From: Bilabrum cf. latius
Lineage: Eukaryota
Assembly: GCA_965178125.1 (NCBI GenBank)
Contig: OZ237735.1
Coordinates: forward strand, 620,001 to 684,000
Reading direction: 5' to 3'
Length of the DNA: 64,000 nucleotides
Numbering within the stretch: position 1 is the stretch's first letter; every line of letters starts with the position of its first letter. A program made the position numbers and the translations under genes. The notes beneath the pieces were generated by a model. The model saw only the letters and a program-made list of their open reading frames with translations, made no database searches and was not told the DNA's origin. Positions 17,528-64,000 of this stretch are shown piece after piece.

Positions 17528-17537
17528 ATATATTCAT

Positions 17538-27460: not shown

Positions 27461-30400
27461 CGCCTCGAGTGCATCCTGGATATCCTGCGCGGATGACCTA
27501 TCACCGCCCTACACGACCTGCTCTACTACCTTGGACACGTGCACCTCCAGCACTTGCGCGGCAGCGGCAGCTGTCGATGGCCCCGCTGCATCCTCTGGAC
27601 CCCCCGCAGCACCAGCACCAGGCCCAGGCCCAGGCTGGCTGCTGGCGGCGCCGCCCCCGGCCGAACCCTCGCTGCTTGTCACGGCAGGTCCAGCTGCACC
27701 AGATACGGGCTTGCCACTCGTCATCGTGACCAGTCCGACCTCACCGGGGCCCCGATACCGCGCGTCGCACGCAAGCAGCCAATCCACGCACTGGAGCGCC
27801 CTGCTCCCGTCCAAGTCCTCAGGCCGCATCTCGGCAGCCTCAGGCTCCGAGGAGTCGCCACCTTTCGACTTGGACCCGCCACTGTCGCGCTTGCCACCGC
27901 TTGACTTGTCGCCATCACCGGTTCCAGGCTCCTCTAGCCCAAAGGCGACGGAGTCGGCCCACTCCCTCACCATCCCGATGGTGACCCGGCCCAGGCACGG
28001 GCGCAGCGCATCGACGATGCGATCAATCGCTTCCTGGGAAGCTCGCACGAAGGTCTGTCTGCAAGCATCCGCCAGCACGCATTCCTCGATTGCTGCTGTA
28101 GACAGGTACGCCACGTGTGCGCCCATGGTGAGCAGTGCCTGCAGCTCAAAGTGCTCGCTGGGGTCCAGCTCAAAATCGCCGACTTCGTGCTTGCGCGGAG
28201 ACCTCGAGTAGTCCAGCTGCTCGAGGAGCTGCCACATCGAATGCAATCGCTGAGCATGCAGCTTCTTGACGGCTCTGCTGAGGCCAGCGCGCCGGAATGC
28301 AACGCCGATGCTGTCGGCATGGAGGACGTCCCCGTGGACCACCGATTTTGCCGAAAGCGATGCTGGCTTGCTACCTGCACCCTCTGGGACACTCGTATCC
28401 TCGCCGCTCGTGTGCATGCCCGCCAGTTTAGTCTTGTGCTGAACCCGTGCGATCAAGCGAAGGCCAGCTCCCTCGCTGCTGGAGCTAAACGCGTCGGCCG
28501 CACCAGCTGAGGCCTGGTCGCTGGGGTGTTCCGCGACGCACCTTGACTGTGCCACGGCTTTGGAGTGGAGCATCAAGCTGCGAACCATGTAGCCGGCAGC
28601 GCGGGCGCTGACGCCGATGAGTGGGTAGCCTGCCGTATCGTGTCGGGATGCGAGGCGAAGCACGTCGAGCAGCTGCCACTCCGACACGAGTCCTGCGTGC
28701 TCGACAGCAGCCGTTTCCACAGCTTCCAGTGCCGCAGCATACCCATTTACTGCTTCGTGGAATACGGACCTGAACAGCCTGCGAGCAGAGGCCCTGGCCC
28801 CAGCGTCGTCGCCGGGACGACATCCGACCAGGCACAGGCCCCTCACGGCTGAAGGCTTGAACCGAAGGCAGTCCTTGACTCTCTCTACCACCCGAGCATC
28901 GCACATTCCAGCCTTCTTCGCGTTGTCGCTTTTCTCCAGTACACCCCGCAGATCACCCACCGTGACGGCATCTGCAAAGTGCGCAAGCGACGCGATGTAC
29001 CTCGCAGCCCCAGCCGCTCGCAGCAGCCCATCGCACGGCGCGGCCTCCGAAGTGATGCGTCTGATCCAGCTTTTCTGCTCCCTCGCCTGCACAGCAACGG
29101 TAGGATCATGCGCCGCGCCGTCGCCCTGGCTCAGCGCGACTTGCCCCTCGATCCCAGCCGCCGCCAGGGGGTCCTCCCCGACCGCCAGCAGGTCGAGCAC
29201 CGCGCCCTGCTTGCCTCTCATGAGGGTGCGACCCGTGCGAATGAACGCAGCGATGCGATCTTGCAAGGATTCAAGCACCTCTGGCTCTACTCGGTCACCC
29301 GTGCTGCATGCTCTGCCTCCTGCACCCAGAGCTGCGCTGCACAATTTGCTCACCTGGGCGAGTGACAGGCTGTTGGGTGGCACGATCCTTGCTGCTTGCT
29401 CTGCTGCGGATTTCACATCGGCTGTCACAATCACGTCAGTTGATGCTGTTGACGATCTACGAAGCACGATAGGCTGCTGCAGACCCACCTTTGTGTCCTT
29501 CTGGTCAATGCTTCCCTGCTTGACTGCTTCTGTAGGAGATTCAAGCCCCAGTGCATCGGCACCCGGAATACCTCGCCCCCCCTCAATGGTCTCCTCCTGC
29601 GAGAAGCACTCCATGATGCGGCGCTCCACCTGGGTCGGCGAGCACCACGCGAACTCCTTCATGGCATCCTCGTCGCCGGCACGCAGGGCCGCCAGCTGCC
29701 TCTGATGGCCCCGGATGGTGACCCCGTACTTGCTGAAGGAGCCCGGGTCATCAACGTCGATGTCATCCACGGTGATCACCCCCTCGCTCTCGAATCCCGG
29801 CAGGTACTGCTCCATGCCCGCCCTGAACAGCCACTCGTGTATGGACATGAGGTTCCCAACGGTAGATATCTTGCCCTGCGCCTGCAGCAGGCTGTCCACG
29901 GCCGCCTGGCTGCTTGCAGCGCGAGGGTCGTCCCTGTGCTTGAGCAGGTGCCCTTGCAGCGCCGCGGGTGCCAGTTGCTTGCGACTGCATCGCTGAGCGA
30001 ATGTCTGGGCCATCATCTCCAGCTCTTTCGTGGTGAAGGCCGCTGCTGCAGAAGACTTGCTCGGAAACTATCTGCCCGTTGGGTCGGCTTGACCTGCGCC
30101 CGCGTCGTTCGAAGCGGATGGCTTTCCCGACATTCGATCCAGGGCCTCGGCATCCTCCTCCTCATGACCGTCCTGCTTGCCCCCTATTCGCCGCTGAATG
30201 CCGTGCGAATAGAAGTGCGTGAACATCTTGCGCATCTGATTCGGAGACGCGTAGTCGAGCTTGACGTGCACATCACAGCGGCCCGGGCGCACGAGGGCTG
30301 GATCGAGCTTCTGCAGGTGGTTGGTGGTCATGAACACGACTCGTCCTTGTTGAGAGGCCACCCCGTCCAGGGCGTTTAGGAGACCAGAGAAGGAGACGCC

Positions 30401-31510
30401 GACGCCTCCCTGGCTGGCGGCCTGCCGTTGCACGAATATGCCGTCGATGTCCTCTAGCAAGAGAATGGAGCGCGGAGGAGATTTCTAGAAGAGCTGCATG
30501 AGTCTGCGGTCGTCCACGCTGTTCCCCGCTAGGTTGACCACGCACACGTCCAGCTTTGGCTCCATCGCTCCCGCGATCGACATCACCGTGCTGGTCTTGC
30601 CGGTCCCTGGCGGGCCGTGCAGCATGTATCCGCGTCGCCATGGGACACCCCGGTCATCGTACCACTTCCTAGACGCAAAGAAGCGGTTCAAGTCAGCGAG
30701 CAGGTACTCCCCGATGTCCACCGTGCTGCCGTCAGGGCCGGCGGTCTTGTCGAGGATCACCGAGGAGAGGGGGCGAGGCTTGCGGGAATCGACCTTCATC
30801 CAGGTGCGCCAGCTGTAAGGGTGTGTAACAAATACTCTGGTGTTTTGCTGTTCTTCTTGGAAGGCGTACAGCTGCGCCTCGGCCACTAGTGTCTCGAGCA
30901 CCTTGCGATCCAGGCCAAGAGTCGAGATGCGCAGGTACCTGCGCACAGTAGGCTGATTGTCCCAGCCTTCCGTGCTAGGCTTAGCGCTCCAGCGAGTTAT
31001 CCACATGATACGCCCAGAGTACAGCAGCAAGCTCATGCCATCCCCCTCGTCAAACTTGAGAGGAGGCGGACCGCTGCCCTTCGTTTCCTTTGCCTTCCGA
31101 CGGTCAATTTCTACACGGGACGCGCGCGATGTAAGGAGCGTGTAGCTAGGATGATCTTGCAGCCACGTGCTGATATGATCGAAGCTGTCATCGCTAGATT
31201 CGACCGTGAGCTGGACGACTAGTTGGCCCCTGGCCCACGACCACCAAGCTGAAGCGTTCTGATAGACCTTGGCCCCGATCACGACGGCAAAGCCCCAGAC
31301 CCATGGCATTGACAATAAATCTACGATCCATCCACCCGCTTTGCTGTGAGGCTCTCCGTGTTCCGAACCAGGAGAATCCTCATCCGCGGTGCGCTCGGAT
31401 ACCTGCTCAGCGTCCTAGATCTACGTCACGACAGACTAGTTATCAGCTCCGAATGCAAACAAGACATTCAAACTACAAAGTACTAGCGAAAATACAGGGC
31501 TGTAGATCAT
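27461..31510 (-). CDS. Host BCS1-like AAA ATPase with SAM domain(s) and long C-terminal extension; 3' end runs into the virophage
   Basis: BCS1_N-like region, RGYMLHGPPGTGKTS, LLEDID, GLLNALDG, LDPALVRPGR; SAM-like WLFRAGMEQYLPGF...GHQRQL. Single frame joined by TAGs at 31436, 30485, 30068, 27509 and others. Start uncertain. Confidence 0.8.
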
Positions 31511-31976
31511 TAGTACGCTTGCTGAGCTGACTCTGATGCCCAAGAACAGATCGCAAAACAGCGGATTCAGACTATGAACTTCCGGTTTTGCGCGAATTGT
31601 CGGGAATAGCTTGACCGGCCTCGTTGCCCAGCCTGGTTTGATATACAGGGCTGGCATGGTGAACCACGACCCCTTTGATGGCTCGCTGGCAGGGCGTCAG
31701 CCGCAGGACTGCTGAGAGGGCGACCACTGGGCTAGAGGCAGCGGTTGGGGGTCCGCTGGAGCCACCTATCGAGCGGCGTGCTGCTGTGCCTACCAAGGCT
31801 GCCCGTGAACAGTCCGGTGATCAAGCTTTAAGACGAGTTTAGAACGACAACGGTTGCTGTACAGGCGCAGATTGCAGGCACTAGAGTCTATGACTTCGGT
31901 TGTTCCGGAGTGTTTTGAAACGTGTACTTTCAGCCGGCCAGGCGAGGCCTCATTTCCATTCCAGCTTCTGTTTCTT

Positions 31977-34385
31977 ATGGCATCCGTCGCTGCTTCCTCT
32001 CGAGCGTCATAGCTAGTAGCTCGGCTGAGCGCTGTGCGGGCGATTCTGGCCAGGAGGTCTGTGCAGGCATTCGTAGTGCCCACGTCTGACGCCCACGAGA
32101 GCGAGTACGTTGCAGACTGCGATGCGCGCAGGGTGTACCTATCTGGATTCACTGGCTCCGCAGGAACAGCAGTAATTACCGCTGATCATGCCAAGTTGTG
32201 GACAGATGGCAGGTATTTTGCTCAGGCGAATGCCGAGCTTGTGGAGCCGTGGCAGCTCGTCAAAGATCGGCTTGCAACCTCTCCGACTGTAGGAGGCTGG
32301 CTTTCCTCCGAAGAAGCAGGACTTCCTGCCGAATCATAGGTCGGCGTTGATCCTCGTACCGTGACAATCTCGATGGCGAAGAGTATGCAAGCTGCTCTCG
32401 GGGCCACGGGGCATACGCTTAAAGCTCTCGACAGCAATCCTGTCGACGAGGTATGGGGAGAAGACCGCCCGAATGCTCCAGCCGACCCTGTTCGAGTACA
32501 TCCGGACGATCTGGCGGGCGAGAGCGTGGCATCAAAGTTGGACCGGCTCAGGGAGAAGATGAGGGCGAGCAAGGCAGTTGCCCTTGTTGTCACGGCTCTG
32601 GATGAGGTCGCCTGGCTGCTGAACATGAGGGGCAGCGATGTTGAATGCAACCCTGTATTCTTCGGATTCGTGATCGTGACTGCCGCTCCGAAGGGCACGA
32701 CTGGGAGTGAAGCGTCGTCGTCCTCATCCGCCGCAGCATCTGCTTCCTCCTCTGGTGAAGTGAGCATCAACCCAAGCACCGACGGTGCGTACGTCTTCCT
32801 GCCCCCGGGCAAGCTGGACATCCCCGCGAAATCCGATGGCCCCCCTGCCAAGGGACCCAGCCCCCGGGAGCACCTGGCTGCGTGTGGGGTGCAGGTGCAT
32901 GAATACGAGCAGGTGTACGGTGCGGTGGAGAGCATTGCACGGTGGTGCGCGGCCGCCGGCCCATCCAAGCTGTGGATTGACCCCAACGTGGCCAACTGGG
33001 ATGTCCTCAAGGCGGCCCAGAGGGGTTTCCCCACCGACGGGGTTGTCGACACCCCGGGGGTGGTGCACCTGCAGGCTGGCCCCATCCCGCTCATGAAGGC
33101 CGTCAAGAACGATGCGGAGCTGAAGGGATTCGCCGACTGCCACATCCGGGATGGCGCCGCGCTTTGCCGAACGTTCGCTAAGGTGTTCGCTGACGTGGGC
33201 AAGGCCCGAGGCGGGGTTCAGAGTGCCCCCCGGGTGACCGAGTACGACGTCGCCTAGGAGGCCCTCAAGCAGCGGGGCGCGGACCCGAGCTTCTTCTTTC
33301 CCTCTTTTGCCACCATCGCGGGGTCGGGACCCAACGGGGCCGTGATCCACTACGACCCTGAGGAGGACACTGCCCTGGAGGTTAAGCTAGGGAGGCAGCT
33401 GCTCGTTGACTCAGGCGGGCAGTACGCTGACGGCACCACGGACGTGACGCGAACCATGGTGGTGCCTCGTGACTCGGAGGCTGGTGCGGCCGCGGATCTG
33501 GGGGCCTTCCAGCGCAGGTGCAACACGCGCGTGTTCCAGGGCTTCGTGAGCATCGCCAATGCTGTGTTCCCCCAGGGAACAAGGGGCGAGCAGCTCGACG
33601 CGCTGGCCCGGATGCACCTCTGGAGGGACGGCCTCAACTTCAACCACGGCACCGGTCACGGGGTGGGCGCATTTCTCAACGTGCACGAGGGACCTCACGG
33701 GATCGCGCCGAGGGGGAGGCCCTACCACGGGGGCATGGTCGCTGGCATGACTGTGACGGACGAGCCGGGGTACTACCAGGAGGGCCAGACCGTCCCGGGA
33801 GACTAGGGAGACGCCGCTGGTGCTAGCGCTGGGGCCGGAGCAAGCAAGGGCCAGGTGGCCATGGAGGGCGGGGCCGCTGCGGGCGGGAGCGGCGAAGCCG
33901 CGCTGTGCGGGGAGGGCTTTGGGTACCGCGTGGAGAACGTTCTTTCCATCGTGAAGGCGGATCGGGCCCTGTGCCCACACCGGTTCGGCGGCAGCCAGGT
34001 ACTTCGATTCGGGCACCTGACGTGGGTGCCCATACAGGCCGACTTGTTCGACCTCGAGCTGCTGTCGGGAACGGAGCGGAGGTTCCTGGACACGTACAAC
34101 GCGGAGTGCAGGCGCCTCCTGACCCCGCTGCTGCAGGCCGGTGCGGACAGGGCAGGCACGGCTGCACAGGGCCCGCACGGTGTGGCTGCGCCCGCGGACG
34201 CGGAGGACGACAAGAGGGGGCTGGAGTGGATGATGAGGCTCACGCGGCCTGTGGGCGGCTGGGACCCATCCAACGACCTGGAGAGGTCGCCGTCGCTGGT
34301 GGACTCTCCGTTCTACGATGGGCAGGGGATCCTTGGGGCGGAGGCTGCTGCGGGCGGCGCAGGCAGCAAGCGAGCCCGCACGTGA
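31977..34385 (+). CDS. Xaa-Pro aminopeptidase (aminopeptidase P, XPNPEP1-like), 802 aa
   Basis: DAHESEY, SGFTGSAG, LWTDGRY, DSGGQYADGTTDVTRT, HGTGHGVG..LNVHEGP, DEPGYY, GYRVEN. In-frame TAGs at 32010, 32337, 33255, 33804; ends TGA. Confidence 0.92.
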
Positions 34386-34620
34386 AGGTTGCACGGCAGC
34401 TTGATGGCATAGAATCCTTTGCGTCTGGGGGGCTCTTCGGGAGACAGGTTTTGCACAGGCAGGAACGAACATGGGAATGGCCGGAGATGGCACGACTCGG
34501 AATAGAAACGATTTCATAATATCGTGGTTCAGGGGGCAATAAGTTATCTGTGTGAAATATATCAAGCAGAATTCTGTGGAATACGAATTAGACTTCGACT
34601 GCTCGTGAGCAGCTGTTGCT

Positions 34621-36639
34621 ATGCTCGGCTCACAGATATCTGCTGAGGTATGGGTAGAATTGCGGGAACAGTCTCTGCTTGCGTGGCCTGTTGTGACCAC
34701 CTACCTGCTGCAACTAGCAAGCATGGTTACAACAACAATAATTGTAGGGCATCTCCCGACTGCAGTTCCACTGGGAGCGGTTGCACTAGCAAATATGTGG
34801 GTAAACTCCACTGGTTTCTCCGTGATTCAGGGGTTAGCCACCGCACTAGATACCTTGATGGCGTAGGCTTACGGGGCGAGATCCTATGTACGGTTAGGGA
34901 GGCTGGCCTAGCGCGGGGTCTGCATTCTTAGCTTAGTGTGCGTTCCCATATCGGCATCATGGTGGTTCTCTGGAGCCGTGCTTTCGAATCTTGGATAGGA
35001 CCATGACACAGTTGAGCTCGCAGAGAAGTACTGCAGGATCCTTCTTGGTGGTTTATGGCCCGCTGTCATATTTGAGGTTGCCAAGAAGTACTTGCAGGCG
35101 CAAGGTATCGTGCTTCCAGCCATGGTAGCGGCAGCAGTGGGAGCCGTCACGAATGGCATACTGGCGTATGGAGCCGTTTACAAGTCATCTCTCGGGTTGA
35201 TGGGTGCTGCCGTAGCACAAGTAGTATCACAATGGGTGATGGCAGGCATTGGGGTAGGGTACGCCGTGTGGCTTCACCTGGCCAGGCGAGCCAATGCCGA
35301 AGGGTATGGAAAAATGAAAAGCCGAAACGTATCGTCATTGCAGCAATCGAAGAGCGGCGCATCGCAACTGCAGCAAGCCGCCGTTGAATCGGAAGCGGGT
35401 CACAATGCGCACTCGACCGGCTTGGACGAGCAAGTACTAGCCGTATCGCCGAGGCAGATGCCCATAACGTGGGGAGGGCTGCAGTGGACGGCTTGTTTCA
35501 GCGTGGCAGGTTGGCTCGAGTTCCTTGGGCTGGGCCTCCCTGGAATGCTCATGTCCATTATGGAATGGGCTGTCTATGAGGCATCTTCTGTGGCTGCCGG
35601 CCTTCTTGGCAAGGAGCAGCTGGCTGCGCACGCAGTGCTCGCCCAGGCAGGTGCTCTGAGCTACATGGTGCCTCTTGGCGTGAGCGTGGCTGCGGGTGTA
35701 AGGGTAGGACAGATGCTGGGCGCGAAGGACCCGGCAGGCGCCAAACGAGCCACGTCAGTGGCCGTGTTTCTCGGCTGGACCGCCGTTGCAATCACTGCGA
35801 GCACTTTCTACCTCGCTAGGTGGCCCTGGGCCAGCGCCTTTTCGGAGGATGCTGGCGTGCGGGAGGCGGCAGCCAACTCGATGTACATGCTGGCGATCTT
35901 TACGCTGCTGGACCAGTACTAGTGCGTGCTGTCGGGAATCATGCGTGGGATGGGGCGCCAGGGGGCAGGGGCGATCGTCAACGTGGTGTCGTACCTCGGG
36001 GCCGAGCTGCCCCTTGCCTTTGTTCTATCGGGACCGGCGGGGCTCGGGCTGGACGGCGTGTGGCTCGGGATATTCATCGGAGTGGTGATATCGTCAGTCA
36101 TGCTGACGTGGCTGACGCTGCGGAGCGACTGGGAGAAGCAGAGTCGACTGGCGGCCGAGCGGGCCTCGGGGCCTGGCGGTCCATCCAGTGTATCTGACGG
36201 TAGTGCAGGGGGGAGCGGGCGGGGTGCCTACGCACAGGTGGAAGGGGGCAAGGGGGGAGGGCTCGGTAGAAATCCCGGGGTGAACGGATCTGGATCGATC
36301 GCGGGCGGGCGCAGCGATTCGGAATAGGAAGGAGGGCTCGAGGCCCCGGCAGTGGGTCGGGGCCGAGGCAGGGGGCAGGACGTGTCTGGGCATGGCCTGG
36401 GGGTGGCTGGAAGCGATAGCGACTCTAGTGGTAGCGGACTAGAGATGGTATCGAGTGGATTGCGTATGATTGTGGAGGACGACTCGGAGGAGGAGGGGGG
36501 CGGCGACAAAGGCAAGGATGCCTCCATTGTGCCCTCCGTCCTGTCCGGGAGTGCGGCGGCGGTACAGTGGGACGATGAGATGGAGGAGGCCGGGGGCTTG
36601 GATCCACTGGAAGCAGAGGAAGGCAGGAGACAACTGTGA
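34621..36639 (+). CDS. MATE-family efflux transporter
   Basis: VGHL...LGAVALA, ALDTL, KYLQAQG, EW, RVGQMLGA, GLDGVWLG. TAGs at 34864, 34909, 34996, 35920, 36325; ends TGA. Confidence 0.92.
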
Positions 36640-36765
36640 GGTACTCGGCTGGCTGTGCATATGGATGCATTGCATGCAAATGGAACGAACGAACCACTGC
36701 CGAACCTGCAACGAACCTGGCAGATCGCCGGACAATCCTCGGCCATTCCCTACAACGCCACTAGC

Positions 36766-38607
36766 ATGGAGGAGCGTATCGATGATCTAATCCGCAGTTT
36801 GGATGATGCAGTGCAGTCGGTCGATATTGATCCCTCTGGGTCCATCACTGTGAACGAGGATGCCGGTGTTGATGCAATAATCAAAGTTGGCGCACATAGC
36901 GAGGCACCAGCTGCTGCTAGGGCTGAACTTGACTCGAAGATAAGCAGGATTTTGCAAAGAACGTCACCTAAAGGCAGCAGCGATAGAAAATCTAGATCAG
37001 GTGTAGGGGTGGAGGGCTCCTGCAGGCCGACGAGTAGGTCGGACTTCTTGCGAAGGCTGGCTACGTTCAGAGTTACGAACTGGTTTGGAAAGCCACATAG
37101 GTTGAGGCCGGCAATTTGTGCAGCGGCCGGCTGGGAAAGTACAGGATCAAAAGATGCGCTGAGATGCACAACGTGTAAGAGGATAGCCTGCATATCAAAC
37201 CCCCCAACTGGATGGGGTGCTTCGGGCGGCTCATCGAACAGTGCTGCCGACAGCAGTCAACAGCCTGCTATAAGAAGTGCTATTGATACAATTCATCACG
37301 CTGGGCACGGCCCAAAGTGTCCTTGGAGAGGCGCGTAGTGCCCAATGGCATTTGAGCGGATTCGCCCAGTTCCAAGCAAGCGATTGGCATAGACTTTTCT
37401 AGACAGCACTAAGAATGTAGGCGGATTGATTGAATCACTCATGAGCAAACACAGCGGTGATGCTGCGCGCATCTCTGTGCCGTTCTGGGACGCAGCTCGT
37501 GGGGCGCTAAACCACGGTCAAATCGACACTGTGGGGGGCCTTTGCCGCCGGCTGGTCGCAGGCGCAGGGGCAGGGACCCGGTAGGCATAGGCACATGTCA
37601 GTGGTGACGCCTCCGCACTCGCTCTCTCCAACCTGCCTGGCCCGCTCGGACTGGCGGTGGGAATGGTGCTGTGCGGGTGGGGGCTAGGGGATGAGCTAGG
37701 CGATGCAATGGGCTTGTCGAGCACCGCAGTGCGGTGCAGCGATTGCGGCGCGGAGCTCCGATGCTTCCACCTGCTGCAGCAGGATCAAGGCACCGGGCGG
37801 TCAGAGGGCTCAGCAGGCCAGAAGCGAGCAAGGGAGCAGCACAGACCCGGAGCAGGTGCTTCGCCATCATCCCGGCCCCCCGCGGAGCGACGCTCCGGGC
37901 AAGGCGCCGAGGAACCTTCCGCGAAACGTCCCCGCTCAGAGGACGAAAGCAGAGCGTAGAGTGGGGCAGCCACAGGGTCAGGATCAGGATCAGCTTAGCA
38001 GGCCGCTGGGTCTGCCAGGTCGTCATCGCTTGCAGCAGCAGGCCGCGGCACAAGCATGGACGCGTCATGCATGGACCCTCGGCGATGGCACGCGTACGGC
38101 TGCCCGTGGACTGCGCGCGCGTCTCGGATGCTCGGAGAGCACGAAGTCAAAGAGGTCCTCGGCTAGGAGAGGTGGGGCGTGCTGTCTGCAGCAGCAGCGG
38201 CTGCCTCCGACCGTGCTCCTGCCACCGGTGCCCCGCCGCTTGCAGAGTCGTCAGGCGCGGCAGCCTCGAGCACCCCTGCAAGCGGAAGCGCAAGTGGAAA
38301 GACCGGAAGCTCAGCGCAAGCGCAAAGTCCGCCGCCCGGAAGGTCTCCAACCCGCGCGCCTGCCGAGGTCCGCTCGTAGGTCCTTGCCGCGCTGCACACG
38401 CTGGACAAGGCGACTTCGAGGCAGGCGGGTTTGGGGTACACTGGCCTATCAGCAGGTGCTTCTGGGTCGGAGGATGACGACGAGCAGGAAGAAGGCGTCA
38501 TGGGTGCTGCCGGGGGTTCAGTCGTCGATGGCTGGGAAGTGTACGCCCAGGCCGTCGGGGTGTCGGTGCTGGCTTTCTAGGAGCGAGGGGCAGCAGAGAG
38601 CACGTGA
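36766..38607 (+). CDS. C3HC zinc-finger protein (NIPA/ZC3HC1/Rsm1-like)
   Basis: CRP.SRSDFLRRLATF..NWFGKP...CAAAGW...LRCTTC...H...CPW; second module LCGW...CSDC...DPRRWHAYGCPW. Continuous through TAGs to TGA 38605-38607. Confidence 0.8.
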
Positions 38608-38669
38608 CGAGAAGGTTGTGTCGGTGCTGGCTTTCTAGGAGCGAGGGGCAGCAGAGAGCACCTGACGAG
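38560..38669 (+). repeat. 52-bp tandem duplication (1 mismatch) spanning the stop codon of the C3HC gene
   Basis: 38560-38611 versus 38618-38669. Confidence 0.9.
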
Positions 38670-38741
38670 CCGGGGCCTTGATCTGCACATTGTCATTATA
38701 GATTCGTCTTTTCTAAGCTTTAATCCTCCTCTAAACCCACT

Positions 38742-50159: not shown

Positions 50160-50263
50160 CGGTCGATTGAGAGTTGGCCGCGCGAATAGATGAGATTCTT
50201 GAACATGTTGACAACACTTTATTGCCTGCCTCAGGCACTTATTAAAGGCGTTAATGTAGTAAT

Positions 50264-53200: not shown

Positions 53201-56200
53201 CGAGTCCTGTGCTGATAGACCAGAAGGTAGTGGTGCCACTGACTGCTCAGGCTATGGAGGGGGGCTAAGCTGGCGCGCCTCGACAGGCCTAGGCACCAGC
53301 CTAGATTCGCGTTGTATCCTGCCACTGTCATGGGAGAATATCCCCCCTTTTTGCCCTGGACTGCCGTTGCTACTGCGGCGACTGTGGTCCCTTGTGCTCG
53401 GAGATATAGACCTGCTTGTTCTGTTGCTGACGGCGCGTTCTACCAGCTGTTCGGCAGCGATGTGCGCCTGCTCCTTGTGGCTGGCGGCCGTGGGGGGCAG
53501 CAGCTCCCGCGGCTGGCCCTCGCCTACTTCATGTTCATCTGCGCTGCTACTTCCATCGTCGTGCCGCTCAGCCAGGCTATCGCCAGCCACACTCAGCGCA
53601 ACCGGCGGGGTTGGGCTGCGGCGCTGCTGCTCGTCCTCCATCTCCACCTCTGAGCTGTTGCCCGCTTCGTCGTTGCTTGAACGGTGCTCGGCTCGAGGCG
53701 AGTACCCATTGGAGGGTGGCAGAGGTGGCGACTAAGGAGCGGACGGAGGCGCCGACGTTAGAGGGGTCGTAGCCTAGCTGTCGAACCGCGCGCCCGTGCC
53801 ACTGTCCCGGCCAGGCCACTGCTGCTCCATCTGCCTGTCCTGCGGCAAGTCTAGGAAGGTCTCCAGGCCAATGGCCCGGTCTAGGCGACCAACGCCCCTC
53901 GATGGCGATCCCTGCGAAAGACCCAGCCCAGCCTGCCGCCTGCTGGCCTCCAGCTCTGCCTACACGCCCGACCGCTGCTACTGGGGAAGCTACCATCCAC
54001 GCGGCCTCCGACCGCCCGTCCACTCCAAGGCGCTCGGCTACTATTTGGTGGCAGCGAGCCCGAGTGCCTCTTCCAAGGCATCGAGGTCATCGATACCGTC
54101 CACGGAGGCCACTACGGGCGGGCGAGACATCATCGTTCCTTTGGGAGAGTGCGGTCGCGAGGGCAGGCGAGAGGGCCCGTCGGAGTCGTCGTCCCGAGCG
54201 GGAGAAGGCAGCCTGGACCACCTCTGGTCGGGGCTAGTCGGTGCACCGTATGATTCCTGGACATCTGAAAACTCACGGGCTTGCCCGTCGGCCCGCCTCA
54301 CTGTGGCCTGGGCCTTGGCAATGGCAGCAGCGAGCCCCCAGAGCCTGTTCCTCACAGCCGCCTCGTGCTCGTCCTGCAGCAGCCCCTCCATGCCCACCCT
54401 TACCTGCTCGATCTTGGCTGCCTGCTCGAGCCACAGCGTGCGCATGGCCTGGAGAGCAGCTGCTTGGGCGCTGCTGCGTCTATTCCTGTCCGACTGCTGC
54501 TTCAGCACGGTAGAGGCACCCGTGGCGCTGGCTGCGGCCTCGTCCAGCTCGTGGGCCTGCTGCAGCAAGCCGTTCAGGCGGGCGATCAGCTGCTCCCCCG
54601 CGCGCGCAGTTTCGGGCTGCTGCGTGCTGAGCGGCGCCAGGCCCTGCGACAGCGCCTCGGCTGCGGCTTCCATCCCACGGAGCTCGCGCTGGGGATCAGG
54701 CTTGGATGCCGGCTAGTTCGCCTGCGACGGGCTGTGACGCTGGCGATCGGCAGGCTCTGATCGCCTGTCTGGTGATCGCAACACGACAGGGTTGTGGCCG
54801 TCAGCAGATGGCCCAGAGCTCCCGTTTGCATACCGATCTCCGTACGGTGCTACTGCCTCGCTCGCTGCCTCGACAGCACTCCGAGCCAACTCTCGAATGC
54901 GAGCGAGGTCCACTGCCCTGGTCCCGTCCGACACGGAAGAGGCGCCACTGTGCGGCCTGCTGCTTACCACATCAAGATCACGATCGCGATCATTTGCAGC
55001 GACGCGACCGTCTGGGCCAACGAGAGATACCGATGCGTGCCTGCCGTCCAGGTCCCCAGCAGACATGGGGCCCTTGCTGTTGCTCTAAGCCGGCGGAGAC
55101 CGCAGCTTCCAGGAGTCTCCCTGCTTGACGGTGATGCCGTGTGCCGCTGCGGCCGCTTGCTCCCTCACTGCGCGATCTCCGTCGAACGCGCGATCTGCCT
55201 CCGTGGCGATCTTCTGTTCGACCCTGCTGCGCGGCGGCAGCAGGTCAGTCCCGTCGTCAGCGTCGTGCTAGGTGCCGTCACGAGGCTCGGTCAACGACCC
55301 CGGGGCCATGCCAAATCCTTGCTGCTCCTTGCCTGGCGTGCTGTTGGGCGACGGGTCCATGGCCGGGTCCTGCAAGGCGGATCGCAGGTCTGTCGCCGCT
55401 CGCTCGGCCTCAAACTACGCACCGGCAGCACCCAGGCGGATGGCCTGCTGCGACAGCTGGGACTGGTCGCGCGGCTACAGCCCGCTTGCTGCTCGAGTAG
55501 GTGACTCTGGCGCGGCCACTTGCTTCAAATGCTCCATGCGCTTGCGCTGCTCCGCCACAGCAGGCTGCAGCAGGCTGGTAGCATCGGCTCTCGAGCCGCG
55601 CATGCCCGCCGCCCCGGGACTGGCCGCCCCGAACCCGACCCTGCGTCGCACGTAGGGCGGGTAATCCCCCTTCGATGCCTCTAGGATCCGTTCAGGGCTC
55701 ACCTGCACGGGCTTTCGCAGCTTGTGCACCCCATCCACCCCGTGCAGCCTGCCCCGCGCCTTGGCAACGACAGATGCCGATAGCTCGTCCCTCGCATCCT
55801 GCTCACCGTGCCTTCTTGCCCGTGCATCCGCTCTGCTTTGCGCCTTCTTGGCCTTGCGAAGCTCCTCCTCGTGCAGCTCACGCCGGCGCCTAGCCGCTTC
55901 CAGCGCGTCCTCCACGCTGTCTCGCAGTACAGATGCGGGGACCTGCCTGCTCTTTCCCATCGCGTGCCTGCCTCGACCCTTGCCTCTAGATCCCGCCCTG
56001 CTTCGCCTGCCCTTGGCCGCTCCATGCTCCTCGTCGTCCGGGCTCACAGTCAGCTGGGGCCGGACACCGACTCGACTGGCGCGGGCCCCAAAGCGCAGCG
56101 TTGCCCTCGTCTCAGCATGGTTACTAGTGGCTGGGCTCACAGTCACGATGATCGAAGCCACGGCGTTCCCGTCGAGGATGGGCCGCAGCAGCCTCGTAAG

Positions 56201-58015
56201 CACCGACTCTCGCCACGGGATGTGCACATTAGGAGGCCGGGGAGCGCGACGAGGCCTGCCCTTGCGGACCGCAGCCGTTCGCCTCTGCTACTCCCTCTCT
56301 CCCTCAATCTTGGCAAGGGCGTGGATGCACTTGCCAAGCACCGTGATTGAGTCGTTGATCGCGATCCTCTCCTTCTCGCTGCCTAGCCTAACCTGATTGT
56401 AGCCCCCTGCATCGGGGTCTAGCGAGCTGTTTCCAATCGACCTTCTCGGCGCACCCCCGTGCCCCTGCCGGCCGGAAGATCTCCTAGACTGCGGGCCCGA
56501 CCTGCCAAGGGACCGACTCCTAGCACCCGAGGAGGAGTTAGAGCTCAACCTTCCCGAGCCAAGGGCGAATGGCAACGCCTGTTTTGCGCTCTCACTGCCG
56601 GCCAGATCCACGAGATAGAGCCTAGATACCACGGACACCTTTGCCGCGGGATTTCTCTGCCGCAGCGTGAGCACGTACACGCAGTGGCTCCTAGACGAAA
56701 AGTCGTTGTGGTGAGTCGTGCCGACCGCGCGTCGGACCGAGGCAAGCCTCATCAGCTGCACGCCGTCCGCCGAGTCCGCCAGCTGCACCTCGATGGCCCC
56801 CCCTACAACCGTGGCGCCATCCGCCGCTCTAGAGACCGACAGGCTGGGCCCTCGCCGGGGCGGCGACACAGCTCCGTGCCGGAGTGCATCCGGGATGCTT
56901 GATGTTCGCTTCCTCGTCGGTGACCTTCCTCTATCATGGAGGACACCGCTGCTGCTGCTGCCGCCACCCACTCCCACGCTAGAATCTGCCAATGAATCTC
57001 CGTCCATTCCCGTCACGATCGAGTCCCCGTCATCCAATGAGCCACCGGCCCTGCCCCTACCTCTGCCGCCCCTGCCCTTGCCCCGACCACCGGCACCATC
57101 ATCCCTCGAGCTCCCGGCCCGGCCCCGCCCCGAGGCACCCCACCCGTTCTCGCCGTCCTCCAGACTGCCACCTTCGATGGTGCTTGCTACTTCATCGGGC
57201 AGCTCGGGCAGCCCTGCCAGCACGTCAAACACCTCGTCCTCATACACCTCCACGACCTGCATCGTCACAGTGCGCTCCAGCAGAGCCACGCCCTCCTCCC
57301 TCAGCTTCTCGATCACTTCTGGAGTCAACTCCGCTGATTCGGGCGGCCCCAAATCTACACGCGCGGAAACTGAAGCATCTGTGCCATCCTATCCGTTCGA
57401 CTGGCCTTCCAGCAGGCCCATCGAGCTCGCCTCCTTCAGCAGGCCTGTCCGCTCTTCGTCATCGGCCTCGAAAATCCCCTGAAAGATGCCCTCCAGCACC
57501 CGAGGGGCTAAGCCACGCAGTTCATCGTCATCTACAGTTGGGCCCTCCATCGTGAAAGTCTGCGAACTTTATGGATTTGAGGGGGCGACCAGAATGCATG
57601 ACTGAACACCAGGCTGCAGCGAACAGCCGAATGTCCTTGGTTGAACTAGTTCGGGCCTCGTAAATTCGTTGTAACATAAAACACAGTGCACAGCCACACA
57701 GTTAGTGGCACTTACCTTGCCTGTCCCAGTCTATCCGAAAGCCAGGACGCCGGCATTGAATCCATCCAGTAATGCAGACACCACTGGCTCTCCAACTCTG
57801 CGGAACACATCTATCTGTCGACTTGCTTTGTCCAAAACGTGATCATACCGAAATCTTTGCGATCCCCCCTGCGTAACTTTATTCCTATGTTCGACCCAAC
57901 CTTCGTCGGTTGAGTAGCGGATCAGCGATGGACCATCCGCCTCTGCCTTTTCATCCCTGGATAGAGGCCGGATTCTACACAGCACCTACAGATGAGTAGG
58001 CACCGCGGCATCCAT
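50264..58015 (-). CDS. Giant N-terminal-motor kinesin (~2530 aa) with two PDZ-like domains; intron 57560-57715
   Basis: VLCRIRP, FRYDHV, G(TAG)TGTGK/TFTMEG, SSRSH, LVDLAGSE, HIPWRESVLTRLL. One frame to TGA at 50264. PDZ-like segments at ~52900-53200 and ~50330-50650. Confidence 0.88.
51808..51877. repeat. (GCTGGT)n coding microsatellite (Pro-Ala repeat in the kinesin tail)
   Basis: Directly visible hexamer repeat. Confidence 0.9.
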
Positions 58016-58380
58016 TAGACCCGCCTGGGCAGCAATTTTAGTTGGTTTCTTCTGGATATCTGTTAAAGGTTGCGTGCAGTTTGGCCGAATTTGGTATTTC
58101 GTTCTCGTTTCAAGCTCACGTTGCGCGCAGCAGTCTGCTTCAGCCGATACGCGACATTGAGTTGCTTTGGGGTATTGAAAGTATTGTTAGCGCGCTGCTG
58201 ACCGATTCCCTCGACTTTGGAAGCAAAATTGCGGCCTCTGGAGCCGCCAACCACCCCGGCTCGAATTGGTGAACAAGCGAAGGGCATCACAACGAGCGAC
58301 AGAGGGATTCCAGGGTAGTTATACCCGAGTTATTGTCAGTTCTGTATTTGAGGGCTGTATTAGGCTGCTTTGCGTGCTGA

Positions 58381-59479
58381 ATGTCGTCTTCTAATGAGGA
58401 GAACTCTAGGCGGGCTGTCGCGTACGTTCGAGTGCTCGGGACAGTCCTCGCAAGGCTGGTCGCTGCGAATGATGCGCAGACCGGGGGAGCTGCACCTGCT
58501 GAAGTGACAAGGTTTCACGCCCTGCGAGCTCCTTCAATCTCTGTCGGCGACTACCTGGACCGGTGAGTGCTAGCTGCTTGTTGGTTTCGCGTTCCTGCGT
58601 ATTGCTGGTGCGAACTGACTTCGATGCATACTATGTCACGGCTTTGTATTCTATGTGATGTGCTTATGTTCCCTTACTGACCTTTCTTGTCGCAGGATTC
58701 GCAAATACTCCCAGTGCAGTGCCGAGTGCTTCATTCTCGCACTGGTGTACATCGATAGGCTCATCTAGCGAAAGGGGATAACGCTTACCTCTCTAAATGT
58801 TCATAGGGTGGTGATTACAAGCGTCATGCTAGCTGCGAAGTTCTTTGACGACCACTACTACAACAATGCATTCTACGGCCGCATCGGCGGAGTTCCCACC
58901 GGCGAGATGAACGCCCTCGAGCTCGAGCTGCTCTTCTCGATCAATTTCTCGCTGCACGTGCCCGGCGCGGTGTTCAATAGGTACTTTACGGAGTTGTAGA
59001 ACCACGTTCCGGCTATGCCTCCGTCGGCTGACATGCCTCACTTGCAAGCCATGATGGCCCAGGCACCCAGGGCACTCGAGGTCGCGGGGGAGATGGAGCA
59101 GGCGGGGGGCGGGCCAGGGGGGAGCGGAGGCCTTCCAGTCAGGGCGGCGGGGGAAGGGCCAGGTCCTGGCGTGGGCATGGGCGCGGGGATGGGCGCCTCC
59201 GGCCGAGCTGGGGCCGCATCACACGGGCCGGCTGGTGGGGCCCCCGGGGGGGCGGGGGCAGGCGCAGGGGGGAAAGGGTCGATTATGGGAGCAGGCACTG
59301 TGCCTGGTAAGGGTGGTAGCGGAGGGGAGGGGCACCCCAAGTGGGGCGGGGGTCCAGGGGTTCCGGGGGGTCCTGGCGGTGGTCCCCCTCATGGCGGCGG
59401 GGGTGGGTGGGGACCTGGCGGGGGCAGTGGTGGTGCTGGAGGTGGTGCTGCTCCCATGGACGGTGAAGGTAGATATTGA
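58381..59479 (+). CDS. PHO80/cyclin-U(P)-like cyclin with Gly-rich tail; intron 58563-58695
   Basis: [39 protein letters not shown](TAG)R...[31 protein letters not shown]...EMN.LELE; ends TGA. Confidence 0.92.
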
Positions 59480-59641
59480 ACGCAACAGCTGCAGCGCTGT
59501 TTTGATTAATTTTTCCGCTAATTTCATTTTATTCTGCCAGTGATGCGGTACCTTGCCAAACCGGAACTTGCTTGTCCAGCCGAATTCGAATCTCGACAAA
59601 TGCAAGCCGTCACACATGTGCTTGTAGCAACATATGTCATC

Positions 59642-62137
59642 ATGAACGTTGCAGCAAGCAGTAGCAACGATGCCGAACTACTATCTCGCCTTGCTACTGC
59701 CTCGAGAAGCAGGCTTGGAGATCAGCTTGCTGCGATCCCTGATCATACTGTTGCTGCACTACTAGCCGCATTGCCATCACTTGCTGCAGATGTAGCACGC
59801 AGTGCAACGGCAAGCCTTGAATAGGAGTAGCAAGCGCGCGCTCAAGCCGCACGTGCCCACTCCCGCCTGAAAGCTTCGCTTGAGGCCCTGCAGCTGCAGG
59901 CAGAAGCCACTGCTGCGCTAGAGCGTCGCGTGGCAAGAGCAGAAGAGGACTCAATGAGGGCCCAAACCGACTGTTCAATCTATAAAGTGCGTCTTGCTAA
60001 GATTACGGCGACTTTGAAGTCCTATGTCAAATATGCGAGCAACAAGCAGACGTCAGATCAGAGCGAACGGCAACTGGCACCGTTGGAAAGGGCTGCAGGG
60101 CATAGATCTCCGAGGAGAAGACGTATTGAGAAATGTTCGGGGCGTAGTGAATCGCTGAGACCTGAAGACCTGTCCGTGCCCTAGGGTGTGCGCTCGAGGA
60201 TGACGACAAGTCCCACTGAAAACAAGGAGGAAGGTGCAGGCCGTGGGCACACCGGCGGTGCCACCGGCGAGATAAGGACAGATCCAGAGGCGGAACCCGT
60301 AATACATCAAAGCAATGAACCAAGCACCACTGGAGGAGCAACGCACGGAACACCTCTGCAGCTCCGAGTCCTTGCTCGGCCCACTGCCCCTGGCATGGCT
60401 GCTGGCAGCACCAGCAGCCCGCCAGCCAGAGCACCGGTCGCCACCCCATGCCCTCAACCGGATGCTTTGCAGCCGCAAAGCAGCCATGTATCCCTTGCAC
60501 CTACACCTTGTAGGCCCAGACCTAGTGGATCGCATTCAAATGATGCAGACGTAGAGGCCAGAGTGGCTCGCATCCGCGATGCGATTCGGAGTGCCACTCG
60601 CACGCATCAAGCAGCGCCACTGGCATTGGGCCATGTCAGGATGCCCGCTGCTACATGCCGCGGCCCTGCTCCATATGCGGCTGGTGTGTCTTCAACAGAT
60701 GCAGTGCCAGCAATGGCTCGCATGGATGGACCGCCGCAATTGCCAGTCACGCGCACCAAGTAGGACTTGCGTCGGTCTGGCACCGCGCCGGTGCATACCT
60801 CCGGGCAGGCTGAGTCTGCCAGCGGCGAGTCCATTAGTAGCGAGTCCATTCCTACCGAACCAAATAGGAGCTCTGAGAGTAGCACAGCAGAAGGGTGTGG
60901 CGCTGTCCCCGACAGAGACCGGAATCAACAGGCAGTGACAGCGGCAGCGGCAGCCTTGACCTCAGAGGTCAGCTCGGTTGGGAAGTCACCATAGCCGCAG
61001 CAAGCCCACCATGATAGTAGCAGCGAGGTTCAATCAGCGTCCCGCTCGTACGCAGTCAGGCAGCGGCTGCTAGCGAAACTCTAGCTCGGGGACCTGCTGC
61101 CTGCTCGACCTGTACACGCCGGCAGGGGCGCAAGCAGCATGGCAGGCCCAGTCTCCCGATTCCGCGGAGCCGTTGCATCTGGGCGGCAGTTCGCTGCCGA
61201 CCCCAGAGCAGTGTCAATCTATCGGAGCCACTCAGAAAGTACGAGCCAAAAGGCACTCAATAGCGATGGAAACGGGACTGGAATCGATGCTGGAGCAAGA
61301 CCGCTTGGGACGATGCGGGGCAGGCTGCAGCAGCTTGCTGACCAGGTGTTGGACGGGTTCGATCGGGTCAGGGCGGAGCACTCGCTCGAGAGGGCGAGAC
61401 TTGCTCGCTTGGATGCTCGTCGAAAACGATCGCACGCGCCTCTTGCGCACCACGAAGACCTGGCAGAGGTGCGGCACGAGCCGGCCCGCGCCGCGCGACG
61501 AATGCATGGGTCAGCTGGGCGCAGCAGCAGCAGAGTTAGAATAGAAGACTCGGATAGGCCGGACGATGGTGAACGAGAAGGGTCGTGGGGTGGTGGCACT
61601 GATGAGAAGGGTGGCCGAAGGGTGCACTGGGACGACGGATACAACCACTCGCTCGATGCGAGCATGGACGAGGATGAGGATGAGGGTGTTGTTGGGCTGG
61701 GGCAAGACGATCATGACATTGGCGATGAAGAGGAAGAGGAAGAGGAGTACGACTACAACGAAGAGGATGGCAGTGGTGAATTGCAAGGCGACATAGAAGA
61801 TAGGCACCAGGACGAGGACGGGCGTGGGTGGGCAAAAATCGGCGGGGAGCCCGGTGATGCCTCGGGGAGCAGCAGCCGCGGCAGCACCCCCCCCGGCAGC
61901 CTGCGCGCATCGCTCGAGAGCCTGAACTCCGAAGACGCGGCCTGGCTTGAGGCACAGCTAGGTCTCGATGATTCAGAAGCAGGGGCGGCAGGGGCGCCTG
62001 CTGCCCGTTCTTCCAGCTCGGACATGGATCAGGAGACGGGGCGTGGCAGTGGCAGCAGCCGGCCCCCTCCGAGTCGTCCCCGGCTGTAGCCGTCGCGAGG
62101 ACGAAGGGAGGTTCGGCTGAGGGCCCACGGCAACTGA
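59642..62137 (+). CDS. Hypothetical coiled-coil/low-complexity protein (start uncertain)
   Basis: Five track ORFs in one frame separated only by TAG; ends TGA 62135-62137. Confidence 0.65.
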
Positions 62138-62663
62138 AACACTCTTGCTTGGCTGTTGATATTGTTGCTTGCGTTCATGTGAGTCTACTACGGCGGGTAA
62201 GTAACCAGTTGCAGTTCGTGCATTTCGTACTGCAGCGCACTGTGGCACACGCGGGCGGCAAGATCCTGGAGAGTTCAGCACATCGCCTCGCTTGCCCACT
62301 TTGCACCCTCATTTTCCAGGCGAGGAACGCGGTTGGAAGGTGAGCGCAAACAACAAAGAAAATATGAGACCCTGCCGCTCGGCCTGCGTATGGCGACTCT
62401 CCTACGCCCCACCGCTCTGTAATGATCCACCTGCCACTGGTCAGACCTGGTCCGCACCAAGTGCGGCAGGTCAGGACACTCAGGTTCATGAGTGCAGCAA
62501 TACCTAGATTAAGCAGTAGTAGCCAGTACCTGTGGTGCACTTCCAGCCTGACACTGCAACTCTCCAGGCAGACTACGGCTAGTTGGCTAGCCCAGCTCAT
62601 CGGACGAATAGAGTCGCCACACACTGCGTGCAGCCGAGCCAAATTGTGTGCCCACCCTTCGAC

Positions 62664-64000
62664 TCAATCGTCGGTTGTCAGCTGGCTATCCACCTCTATG
62701 CCCTTCCCCTGCTTCACAGGCTCGTCAACTTGCTCCACCAGACGGCTGGAGAGCTCCTCTATCTGGATCTCAAACACCTCTCGCTGCTCTTCCAGGGCCT
62801 GCTTGAGCCGCTCGACCTCCTCTTCCCGCTCCCCCATGAGCTCAAGCAACACATCGTGCTTCATGCGGAACTCCTGTGCCTCCTCAGCAACTTGACGAGA
62901 CCGCTTCTCACTATCACGTGCATCGGTTGCAGCGGCCTCTGCAGAGCGTACACGCCTGTGGAGCTCATCAAGCTGCTGCGCGGATGACCGTGCAGCCTCT
63001 AGTTCCACTCGCAGCTGGGAGCCTAGCGGGCGCAACAGCCCCTGCAGCTTCGCTGCAACATGCACCGGCACGTCCTCTTCCTCGATCGCACCAGTGACTG
63101 CCTGGGTCAAGGCCGTGTACGCTAGCACTGCAGGCGACTCGTCCACGCTAATCGAGCGCCGCGTTCGAATAGGGGATGCATACTAGCTCTTCTGCTCGAT
63201 TGTCGATGCTAAACGCCGGCTCGCACCTTCCGGTGGCGGTGCAGCGGCAACTGATTGAGACTCGCGAGGAGAAGCAGCACTGCTGCTGCAGCTGCTGCTG
63301 CGGGCGCCACTCGAAGCCTGTGCGCTTGCACGCACGCTCTCCTCCGCCTTAAGCCTAGCTGTCGACTCGTACTCTACGTCTCTCTGAAGCTCCGCGACGG
63401 TGGCTCGAAGTGCATCCATCGTCCGACGAGCGCCTGCAATCTCCTCATCCAGCTCCCTGCGCTTCTGCCGCTCAGCCTGCAACTCCCGCTGCAGGGCTTG
63501 GCTGTCTTTGGCCATGCTTTCCACTTGCCGACGTAGCTGCAGCGACGCGTCGTCCGACCTCTGCACTGCATCGCTCCGTTGGCGCAACCTCTGCTTGCAT
63601 GCATCCAGTTCCTGCTGCAGCTCATGCCTCTCCGCGGCCGACTCGGCCAGCTGGGCCCGCATGCCATCCTCATTATCTGAAGCCTATGTCCTGACATCTT
63701 CGAGCTCACGCTGCACCTGCAGCAGCTGCTACAGCAATGACTCAGATTCGGAAGCGCCCGACTTGGATGGGGTACCATCGCTGCTGCTACTGTCGCTTTG
63801 TGCTGGCTCAGCATCGGATGCCCCGGCGGAAGACGCAGACTTCGGGCTACGAGCGAGCTGCAATCGAAGAGCCGCAAGATCGTCCTCCAGCTTGTCTTCC
63901 CTCGCTGCCGACGCAATCCCCTCGGCACGAAGCCGTTGCTGCAGGCCAGCCACTTCGCGCTTGGATGCTTGGAGCTCTGACCTCGCTGCCCCCTCGCTCT
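62664..64000 (-). CDS. TMF1/Sgm1-like golgin, 5'-partial
   Basis: Coiled coil ending in KHDVLLELMGEREEEVERLK...VFEIQI, which resembles the TMF C-terminal domain. Frame continuous through TAGs; ends TGA. Confidence 0.65.

Follow-up and report, generated by a model that had tools for sequence, protein, structure and literature searches.

In the host-derived part of a 64,000-nucleotide (64-kb) stretch of Bilabrum cf. latius contig OZ237735.1, hereafter the window, UAG is very probably a sense codon that cytoplasmic translation reads as glutamine (Gln). UAA and UGA would serve as stops, with UGA the commoner of the two in the window. This assignment, proposed by a first-pass annotation of the same DNA, is supported by homology that continues through in-frame TAGs, by RNA-derived contigs that retain them, by Gln at the matching positions of related proteins, and by C-termini of relatives that coincide with TGA. 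The window itself is compositionally divided. Positions 1-19203 and 25864-27460 are AT-rich (26-33% guanine plus cytosine, GC), positions 19204-25863 are GC-rich (~60%), and the host part extends from about 27461 to the end of the window with 55-67% GC per 2 kb and ~60% overall. The host part was delimited by composition and open reading frame (ORF) statistics:

27461-64000: GC-rich host nuclear DNA in which TAG probably acts as an in-frame sense codon

The ORF statistics of this part depend strongly on how TAG is read. Under the standard stops, the longest ORFs measure 852, 429, and 384 amino acids. With TAG opened, they measure 2434, 1412, 1251, 1030, 871, 854, 676, and 655 amino acids, and the number of ORFs of at least 600 amino acids rises from 1 to 10. 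Opening TAA instead leaves the list of longest ORFs unchanged. Opening TGA instead yields five ORFs of at least 600 amino acids, the longest of 1060, although TGA is the commoner trinucleotide. As a null model, 200 first-order Markov simulations were run in which TAA and TGA alone acted as stops; the mean length of the longest ORF was 410 amino acids (maximum 645), and ORFs of at least 600 amino acids averaged 0.01 per simulation (maximum 1).

Codon counts were taken from 15 ORF segments comprising 13,648 codons. These segments contain 116 in-frame TAG, 441 CAG, and 165 CAA codons, so that ~16% of the presumed Gln codons are TAG, a frequency of 8.5 per 1000 codons overall. As single genes carry up to 22 TAGs, decoding of UAG would have to be efficient, not occasional read-through. 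Twelve segments end in TGA and three in TAA, one of these TAAs lying inside the kinesin intron; the complete lack of in-frame TAA and TGA in the 15 segments is a consequence of how ORFs were defined. In the genes with Pfam support, TAG is the sole interrupting stop, never TAA or TGA. The first-pass claim that host genes are broken by TAG only extends to seven recognisable genes (BCS1-like, aminopeptidase P, MATE, zf-C3HC, desaturase, kinesin, and cyclin), and its companion claim, that supported genes have no in-frame TAA even though CAA is in use, agrees with the counts above. These genes, together with a coiled-coil gene that proved informative in comparisons with relatives, are the following:

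27428-31696, minus strand: BCS1-like AAA ATPase with a SAM domain and a long tail; seven in-frame TAGs; TAA stop; Pfam BCS1_N 2.4e-24, AAA 6.4e-22
31977-34385, plus strand: Xaa-Pro aminopeptidase P; four in-frame TAGs (32010, 32337, 33255, 33804); TGA stop
34609-36639, plus strand: MATE transporter; five in-frame TAGs (34864, 34909, 34996, 35920, 36325); TGA stop; Pfam MatE 6.9e-56
36640-38607, plus strand: zf-C3HC (NuBaID) protein; nine in-frame TAGs; TGA stop; Pfam 5.1e-23
38742-42497, minus strand: coiled-coil protein; 14 in-frame TAGs; TGA stop
44041-45930, minus strand: fatty-acid desaturase fused to cytochrome b5, both recognised by Pfam; TAA stop at 44041-44043
50264-58186, minus strand: kinesin-like gene; exon 1 at 57717-58186 and the remainder at 50264-57568; 22 in-frame TAGs; TGA stop
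58619-59479, plus strand: PHO80/cyclin-Y-like cyclin; two in-frame TAGs, one at 58766 (codon 50); Pfam Cyclin 5.7e-26

Two of these genes are interrupted by introns. The desaturase has GT-AG introns at 44859-44963 and 45275-45406, which leave two exonic TAGs (45595 and 44305) and place a third (45298) within an intron. The kinesin intron, at ~57569-57716, begins with GTAAGT.

Homology to known protein families continues across the TAGs, four times in MATE, three times in aminopeptidase P, once in the AAA domain of the BCS1-like protein, and twice in the kinesin motor. In the BCS1-like ORF, the match to BCS1 in the PDB (3.3e-58) crosses the TAG at 30485. The most constrained position is found in the kinesin P-loop. 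Its TAG, present as CTA at 57731-57733 (minus strand), stands in A-F-G-TAG-T-G-T-G-K and aligns with the Gln of G-Q-T-G-[ST]-G-K in all three PDB alignments. The MATE transporter provides four further columns. Against PDB homologs, Gln occupies site 86 in 3/3, site 101 in 2/3, site 130 in 2/3, and site 438 in 1/3 alignments; against five database homologs, the corresponding fractions are 3/4, 3/4, 5/5, and 4/5. All coordinates cited by the first-pass annotation that were checked are correct, including the second kinesin TAG at 57986-57988 (within H-L-TAG-V-L-C-R-I-R-P), the MATE TAGs at 34864, 34909, 34996, and 35920, and the cyclin TAG at 58766.

Closer comparisons were available from database ORF fragments that had been predicted under the standard code and share 54-95% identity with the window's proteins:

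Aminopeptidase P: P0001 (70% identity)
MATE transporter: P0121 and P0122 (94% and 64% identity)
Kinesin tail: P0144-P0147 (83-91% identity)
Coiled-coil protein: P0148-P0156 and P0171 (54-95% identity)

Counting the first high-scoring segment pair (HSP) of each relative only, these alignments cover 17 TAG sites in 20 site-by-relative pairs. The residue opposite TAG is Q in 12 pairs, E in three, and K, N, A, S, and G in one each, and Q occurs at 10 of the 17 sites (binomial P for 12/20 Gln = 1.4e-11 at a Q background of 4.8%). As a control, the same alignments place Q opposite CAG in 124/148 pairs (84%) and opposite CAA in 30/39 (77%). Opposite non-Gln codons, Q is found in 2/195 pairs for GAG, 0/96 for AAG, 0/141 for CTG, 0/42 for TAC, and 0/49 for TGG. 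Judged by these alignments, TAG behaves as a somewhat less constrained Gln codon. Among individual sites, the aminopeptidase P TAG at 33255 corresponds to Gln in P0001, and both P0121 and P0122 have Gln at each MATE TAG site that they cover. The relative at 64-70% identity (P0001 and P0122) has Q at five of six covered sites and E at the sixth; N-terminal parts are missing from both of its ORFs. Second HSPs of the coiled-coil protein (25-27% identity, with A, S, P, I, and E opposite TAG) were dropped as spurious.

Other amino acids have been assigned to UAG elsewhere: the codon means Leu in a rhizarian and some ciliates, and Glu in one ciliate. A reading of UAG here as Glu, Lys, Leu, or Tyr could draw on the three E pairs and the single K pair opposite TAG, and on the fact that GAG and AAG lie one base away from TAG. 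It is nevertheless very improbable. No residue other than Q exceeds three pairs, neither L nor Y is ever found opposite TAG in the close relatives, and the proportion of pairs with Q opposite an E, K, L, Y, W, or S codon is 1% at most. Moreover, the Gln that TAG replaces in the kinesin P-loop is invariant.

The ends of the relatives' fragments carry a second signal. Ten of them can be placed on the window's ORFs: five end at a codon that is CAG here (P0121, P0144, P0148, P0149, and P0171), three at one that is TAG here (P0145, P0147, and P0152), and two at other codons (P0146 at CGG, P0153 at GTC). The ends of P0155 and P0156 were left unscored, their alignments stopping short of the fragment end. 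This pattern fits a UAG = Gln code that would be shared by the relatives at 83-95% identity. Because their ORFs, called under the standard code, break at positions that are TAG or CAG in the window, the code change would be older than the split from these relatives. As a separate observation, P0001 and P0122 both derive from a contig of 4511 nucleotides, probably the same one, and the aminopeptidase-MATE gene order seems to be kept in the relative at 64-70% identity.

Evidence on the transcripts was obtained from public sequencing data. Twelve runs from seven studies carry the stretch or part of it, and eight contain at least half of the sampled words. Runs X1, X5, X6, and X8, which stem from four studies under four organism labels, were compared with the window over 27461-47460 in the form of contigs. 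All listed long pieces of the four runs match, with no other letters and no gaps. In X1 and X8, long contigs pass across genes in a DNA-like manner, while the contigs of X5 and X6 end at gene borders. In both X5 and X6, the desaturase contig skips both introns, with joints 44858>44964 and 45274>45407 and intron ends CT..AC (GT..AG on the coding strand). The depth of this spliced contig reaches 1047 in X5 and 100 in X6, where the remaining listed contigs have ~10-30 and ~6, respectively. The spliced desaturase contig and the contig ends at gene borders together indicate that X5 and X6 contain RNA; none of the listed runs is on record as RNA. Among 55 in-frame TAGs in seven ORFs of 27461-47460, 26 lie within listed X5 contigs and 17 within X6 contigs, and all nine TAGs of the zf-C3HC gene fall inside one X5 contig with no differences. 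UAG is present in messenger RNA.

These comparisons bear on the idea that the TAGs are untranslated, being sequencing or assembly errors (CAG rendered as TAG), edited sites, pseudogene lesions, or parts of missed introns. The first-pass annotation had itself raised base-calling error and splicing or editing at TAG as concerns. One of the 55 TAGs (45298) is indeed intronic, and the runs, being available as contigs, have lost rare variants. Yet contigs of four runs, each from a different study, show the TAGs without change, and the exonic ones are kept in the spliced, RNA-derived contigs, which makes sequencing error and editing unlikely. In addition, the interruptions are always TAG and at no point TAA or TGA; TAGs occur within conserved domain cores, for instance the kinesin P-loop and the MATE helices; and the relatives' ORFs break at homologous Gln/TAG positions. 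That the TAGs are untranslated is thus exceedingly hard to credit.

Two contig boundaries were observed in these runs. The X1, X5, and X8 contigs end at 38589, and in X1 and X8 two short contigs (74 and 44 nucleotides) bridge from there to the next long contig, which begins at 38632; this suggests that the spot between the zf-C3HC and coiled-coil genes is polymorphic or repeated. All four runs break at 38589. For the BCS1-like gene, the X5 contig terminates at 27510, so that it includes only the first two letters, U and A, of the in-frame UAG at 27509-27511. Assembly may account for this end, as may a difference between strains at the insertion site, or polyadenylation may have completed a UAA stop there.

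The assignment of UGA and UAA as stops follows from gene ends. The TGA of the aminopeptidase coincides with the C-terminal residue of P0001. The TGA of the coiled-coil gene coincides with the end of P0150, with TAGs 36 and 24 codons upstream and a conserved C-terminus after them. For UAA, the desaturase stop lies ~50 residues past the cytochrome b5 domain, and the RNA contigs extend 46-75 nucleotides further. Opening TAA has no effect on the longest ORFs, and supported genes contain no in-frame TAA at this one locus, so UAA is not sense; the code in which UAA and UAG (UAR) both mean Gln (NCBI table 6) was ruled out on these grounds. A code without dedicated stops, of the Condylostoma/Blastocrithidia type, was likewise ruled out, as only TAG occurs in frame in supported genes. 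As for the gene ends that the first-pass annotation had listed, the TAA at 44041-44043 closes the desaturase, and the end at 50157 corresponds to that of an ORF listed at 49446-50159.

A dual meaning of UAG, as Gln within genes and as terminator near some 3' ends (compare Condylostoma and Blastocrithidia), was also considered. Some TAGs lie close to ORF ends, at codon 647 of 655 in the zf-C3HC gene and codons 1396 and 1415 of 1422 in the BCS1-like gene. One TAG codon of the BCS1-like gene (27509-27511) contains the end of the X5 contig, and the MATE fragment of the 94% relative ends where the window's ORF continues with CAG. On the other side, the C-terminus of the coiled-coil protein beyond its two late TAGs is conserved in P0150, and all 15 ORF segments proceed to TGA or TAA. 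Contig ends are, moreover, weak evidence, the common break at 38589 pointing to an assembly effect. A terminating role for UAG near 3' ends is therefore judged quite improbable. The 3' end of the MATE gene deserves a separate remark. Its TGA lies ~21 nucleotides upstream of the first zf-C3HC ATG (36637-36661), and one X5 contig (36284-38589) covers both. This contig, together with the fragment of the 94% relative that ends at the CAG at 36226, leaves it uncertain where the MATE coding sequence really ends.

Under the reading of UAG as Gln, the most likely mechanism combines three changes, each proposed by analogy with other UAG = Gln lineages (PMC5304391). A Gln transfer RNA (tRNA) with a CUA anticodon, probably descended from a copy of a tRNA-Gln(CUG) gene, would pair with UAG and not with UAA. 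The release factor eRF1 would have weakened recognition of UAG. Finally, the glutaminyl-tRNA synthetase would tolerate the CUA anticodon. The same outcome might be reached with no dedicated tRNA(CUA), through near-cognate reading by an altered tRNA-Gln(CUG) or one with a modified anticodon loop or stem. Dedicated suppressor tRNAs are not always found in recoded eukaryotes (PMC5304391), and a tRNA-Trp with a 4-bp anticodon stem is reported to read UGA in Blastocrithidia (PMC13092985). Such near-cognate reading appears rather unlikely here, however. With TAG used this heavily (116 of 13,648 codons, and as many as 22 in one gene), decoding would have to be very efficient, and tRNA-Gln(CUA) genes are documented in other UAG or UAR = Gln lineages (PMC5304391).

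Several observations weigh against the reading of UAG as Gln or narrow the base on which it stands. The sample amounts to ~15 ORFs from one locus, and UAA is seen as stop in two genes (the desaturase and the BCS1-like gene). ARAGORN finds no tRNA genes within the 64-kb window. Seven of the 17 TAG sites lack Gln in the relatives, which show E, K, N, A/G, or S there, and the TAGs supposed at the relatives' ORF breaks are deduced from the ends of protein fragments. The first-pass annotation had described seven cited TAG sites as Gln in the family consensus; this description suits the kinesin P-loop and the MATE sites, and fails for two of the seven, the cyclin site and HL-TAG-V. Against PDB homologs, the cyclin TAG column holds T or an insertion or gap, the BCS1 column holds N or S, and the kinesin HL-TAG-V column holds K, Q, and R. 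In a family alignment of 105 homologs, with 15 of the 120 listed matches left out, the aminopeptidase P columns are variable (R/V/K, D/E, or gaps). The aminopeptidase P, BCS1, cyclin, and HL-TAG-V columns are too variable to identify the residue and are uninformative. With regard to the transcripts, X5 is labelled 'RNA? (probably DNA)'; it is read as RNA because of its spliced contig and the positions at which its contigs stop. As contigs lose rare variants, partial or low-level editing is compatible with the data.

The remaining ORFs of the host part complete the set of candidate genes:

46028-49120, minus strand: low-complexity ORF of 1030 amino acids; nine in-frame TAGs
59522-62137, plus strand: ORF of 871 amino acids; seven in-frame TAGs
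62664-63998, minus strand: coiled-coil ORF running past the window edge; three in-frame TAGs

A further candidate coding frame is the plus-strand ORF at 42091-43602, whose 13 in-frame TAGs in 503 codons represent the highest density in the window; a contig of run X6 spans 43166-43854. Rfam returned no match in the 64-kb window, ribosomal RNA included.

With respect to the host, the first-pass annotation had suggested a Cafeteria-like stramenopile. The best named match of the aminopeptidase P is from Cafeteria roenbergensis (43% identity, 7.4e-140). A FastTree phylogeny of 106 aminopeptidase P sequences places the query together with P0001 in a clade of seven (support 0.889) whose sole named member is Cafeteria roenbergensis. 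One thinly sampled gene tree and the nesting of a Ngaro element in a virophage thus point, with weak support, to a Cafeteria-like bicosoecid, which leaves the suggestion standing at that strength. Cafeteria burkhardae was rejected as the host, since the GC content of the window's host part is ~60% against ~70% in that species (PMC6972860) and the best Cafeteria protein is only 43% identical.

The left part of the window is occupied by two mobile elements:

1-27460: endogenous mavirus-like virophage, AT-rich, interrupted by a Ngaro element
19204-25863, plus strand: Ngaro-type (DIRS order) tyrosine-recombinase retrotransposon inside the virophage, identified by its reverse transcriptase (RT)/RNase H, recombinase, and split repeats

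The virophage capsid ORF (1399-3189) matches Pfam MCP_V20_C (1.7e-13) and, over its full length, PDB entry 6g45 (2.8e-55), annotated as 'putative major capsid protein', which we take to be the mavirus capsid protein. The ORF at 3636-4433 encodes an rve integrase with a weak chromodomain match, and the ORF at 6543-9044 a DUF5906 helicase. A tblastn search with the capsid protein against a phage collection gave no match, and PHROGs gave one weak match for 10 virophage ORFs. Positions 1-117 are 100% complementary to 26457-26573, which indicates that the window begins inside the left terminal inverted repeat (~1 kb). At the junction with host DNA, a perfect inverted repeat of 35 nucleotides with a 1-nucleotide loop (27390-27460) forms a terminal hairpin. 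This hairpin contains the final codons of the BCS1-like ORF together with its TAA stop, so the gene's original 3' end seems to have been replaced when the virophage inserted. The virophage is apparently complete and would measure ~21-22 kb without the Ngaro insert. Among its 23 ORFs of at least 80 amino acids (1-19000 and 25500-27460), 19 end in TAA, three in TGA, and one in TAG (9061-9375, minus strand). Given the AT-rich composition, this depletion of TAG among the stops is not significant (P ~0.06, own estimate); it is compatible with the host code.

The Ngaro element is bounded by split direct repeats that are 100% identical, namely A1 (19204-19379), B1 (25402-25531), A2 (25532-25707), and B2 (25734-25863). 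Its Pfam matches are RVT_3 (8e-06) and a sub-threshold Phage_integrase (0.0003) with an H-x-x-R...Y-like C-terminus. In-frame TAGs number 14 in the RT/RNase H ORF (19381-25167) and four in the recombinase ORF (24024-25361); the two frames overlap at 24024-25167, and some TAGs may fall outside the true coding parts. The identical repeats and the 18 in-frame TAGs would together make this a recent insertion that needs TAG as sense. Judged by its reading frames, the resident Ngaro is adapted to the host code.

A comparable arrangement is described for C. burkhardae, where mavirus-like elements (EMALEs) have been invaded by Ngaro retrotransposons (PMC8547959). As in that species, the window holds an AT-rich virophage of ~20 kb with terminal inverted repeats, a mavirus-type capsid, and an rve integrase, in which a GC-rich Ngaro of ~6.7 kb with the structure A1-[ORFs]-B1A2B2 is nested (PMC8547959). 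C. burkhardae has ~70% GC, and the only code change mentioned in the accessible text of its data paper is mitochondrial UGA = Trp (PMC6972860). In the window, by contrast, host DNA has ~60% GC, TAG is probably sense, and the aminopeptidase P shares only 43% identity with the Cafeteria protein.

Nuclear code changes are rare. The uncoupling of UAG from UAA, in particular, was long thought to be constrained, and its only reported cases are Iotanema, a single rhizarian, and a small number of ciliates (PMC5304391, PMC11687900, PMC10553269). The first-pass statement that such a table-15-like code is rare, with Iotanema and some ciliates as examples, agrees with what these sources give (PMC5304391, PMC11687900). 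The attribution of 'table 15' to Blepharisma is stated to be wrong (PMC5304391). No report of a UAG = Gln code in stramenopiles or bicosoecids was found in a literature search that left subscription journals and supplementary files outside its reach, and PMC12480563 and PMC10120064 contain no matching code report. Apparently, a known code variant has been encountered in a new lineage. A bolder joint proposal holds that this is the first nuclear stop reassignment in stramenopiles, that a clade of at least two related Cafeteria-like flagellates shares UAG = Gln with UAA and UGA as stops, and that the code is old enough for a still-mobile Ngaro to have come to depend on it, while the virophage, translated in the same cell, hardly ever uses TAG (1 of 23 ORF stops); the chances that all of this holds together are evenly balanced.

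If true, the virophages and giant viruses of this host would live under a variant code, and the host might be connected to those giant-virus genomes for which code 15 gives the best annotation. One more independent case, in a GC-rich flagellate lineage that looks culturable, would offer a system for studying the evolution of eRF1 and tRNA-Gln towards a separate treatment of UAG and UAA. It would also reveal how Ngaro elements, virophages, and giant viruses manage in a host that translates one of their stop codons. For annotation, the case would be a warning that the standard code fragments such genes, as it has done in the relatives' database proteins.

Among known systems, the UAR = Gln code is the most widespread point of reference, occurring in many ciliates, hexamitid diplomonads, oxymonads, Amoeboaphelidium, and some ulvophytes. 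The code proposed here resembles it in turning a stop into Gln and in keeping UGA as a stop. It differs in that UAA is Gln there too, whereas the window's genes are free of in-frame TAA. Ciliates are a group rich in code changes, and two of them offer a closer parallel. In Hartmannula sinica as well as Trochilia petrani, UAG putatively means Gln and UAA is the preferred stop (PMC11687900). The likeness to these species lies in a reassignment of UAG alone to Gln, with UAA still a stop; unlike them, the host genome here is GC-rich and flagellate-like, with spliceosomal introns and virophage insertions, and is not a ciliate macronuclear genome. The closest counterpart is Iotanema spirale (Fornicata), for which a transcriptome study reports UAG = Gln, UAA and UGA as stops, and the eRF1 substitution T32G (PMC5304391). 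Both share the same codon table, in which UAG alone is assigned to Gln and uncoupled from UAA, and the mechanism proposed for both is the same. Iotanema belongs, however, to an unrelated supergroup, and its main stop is UAA, as opposed to the TGA that closes 12 of the 15 segments here.

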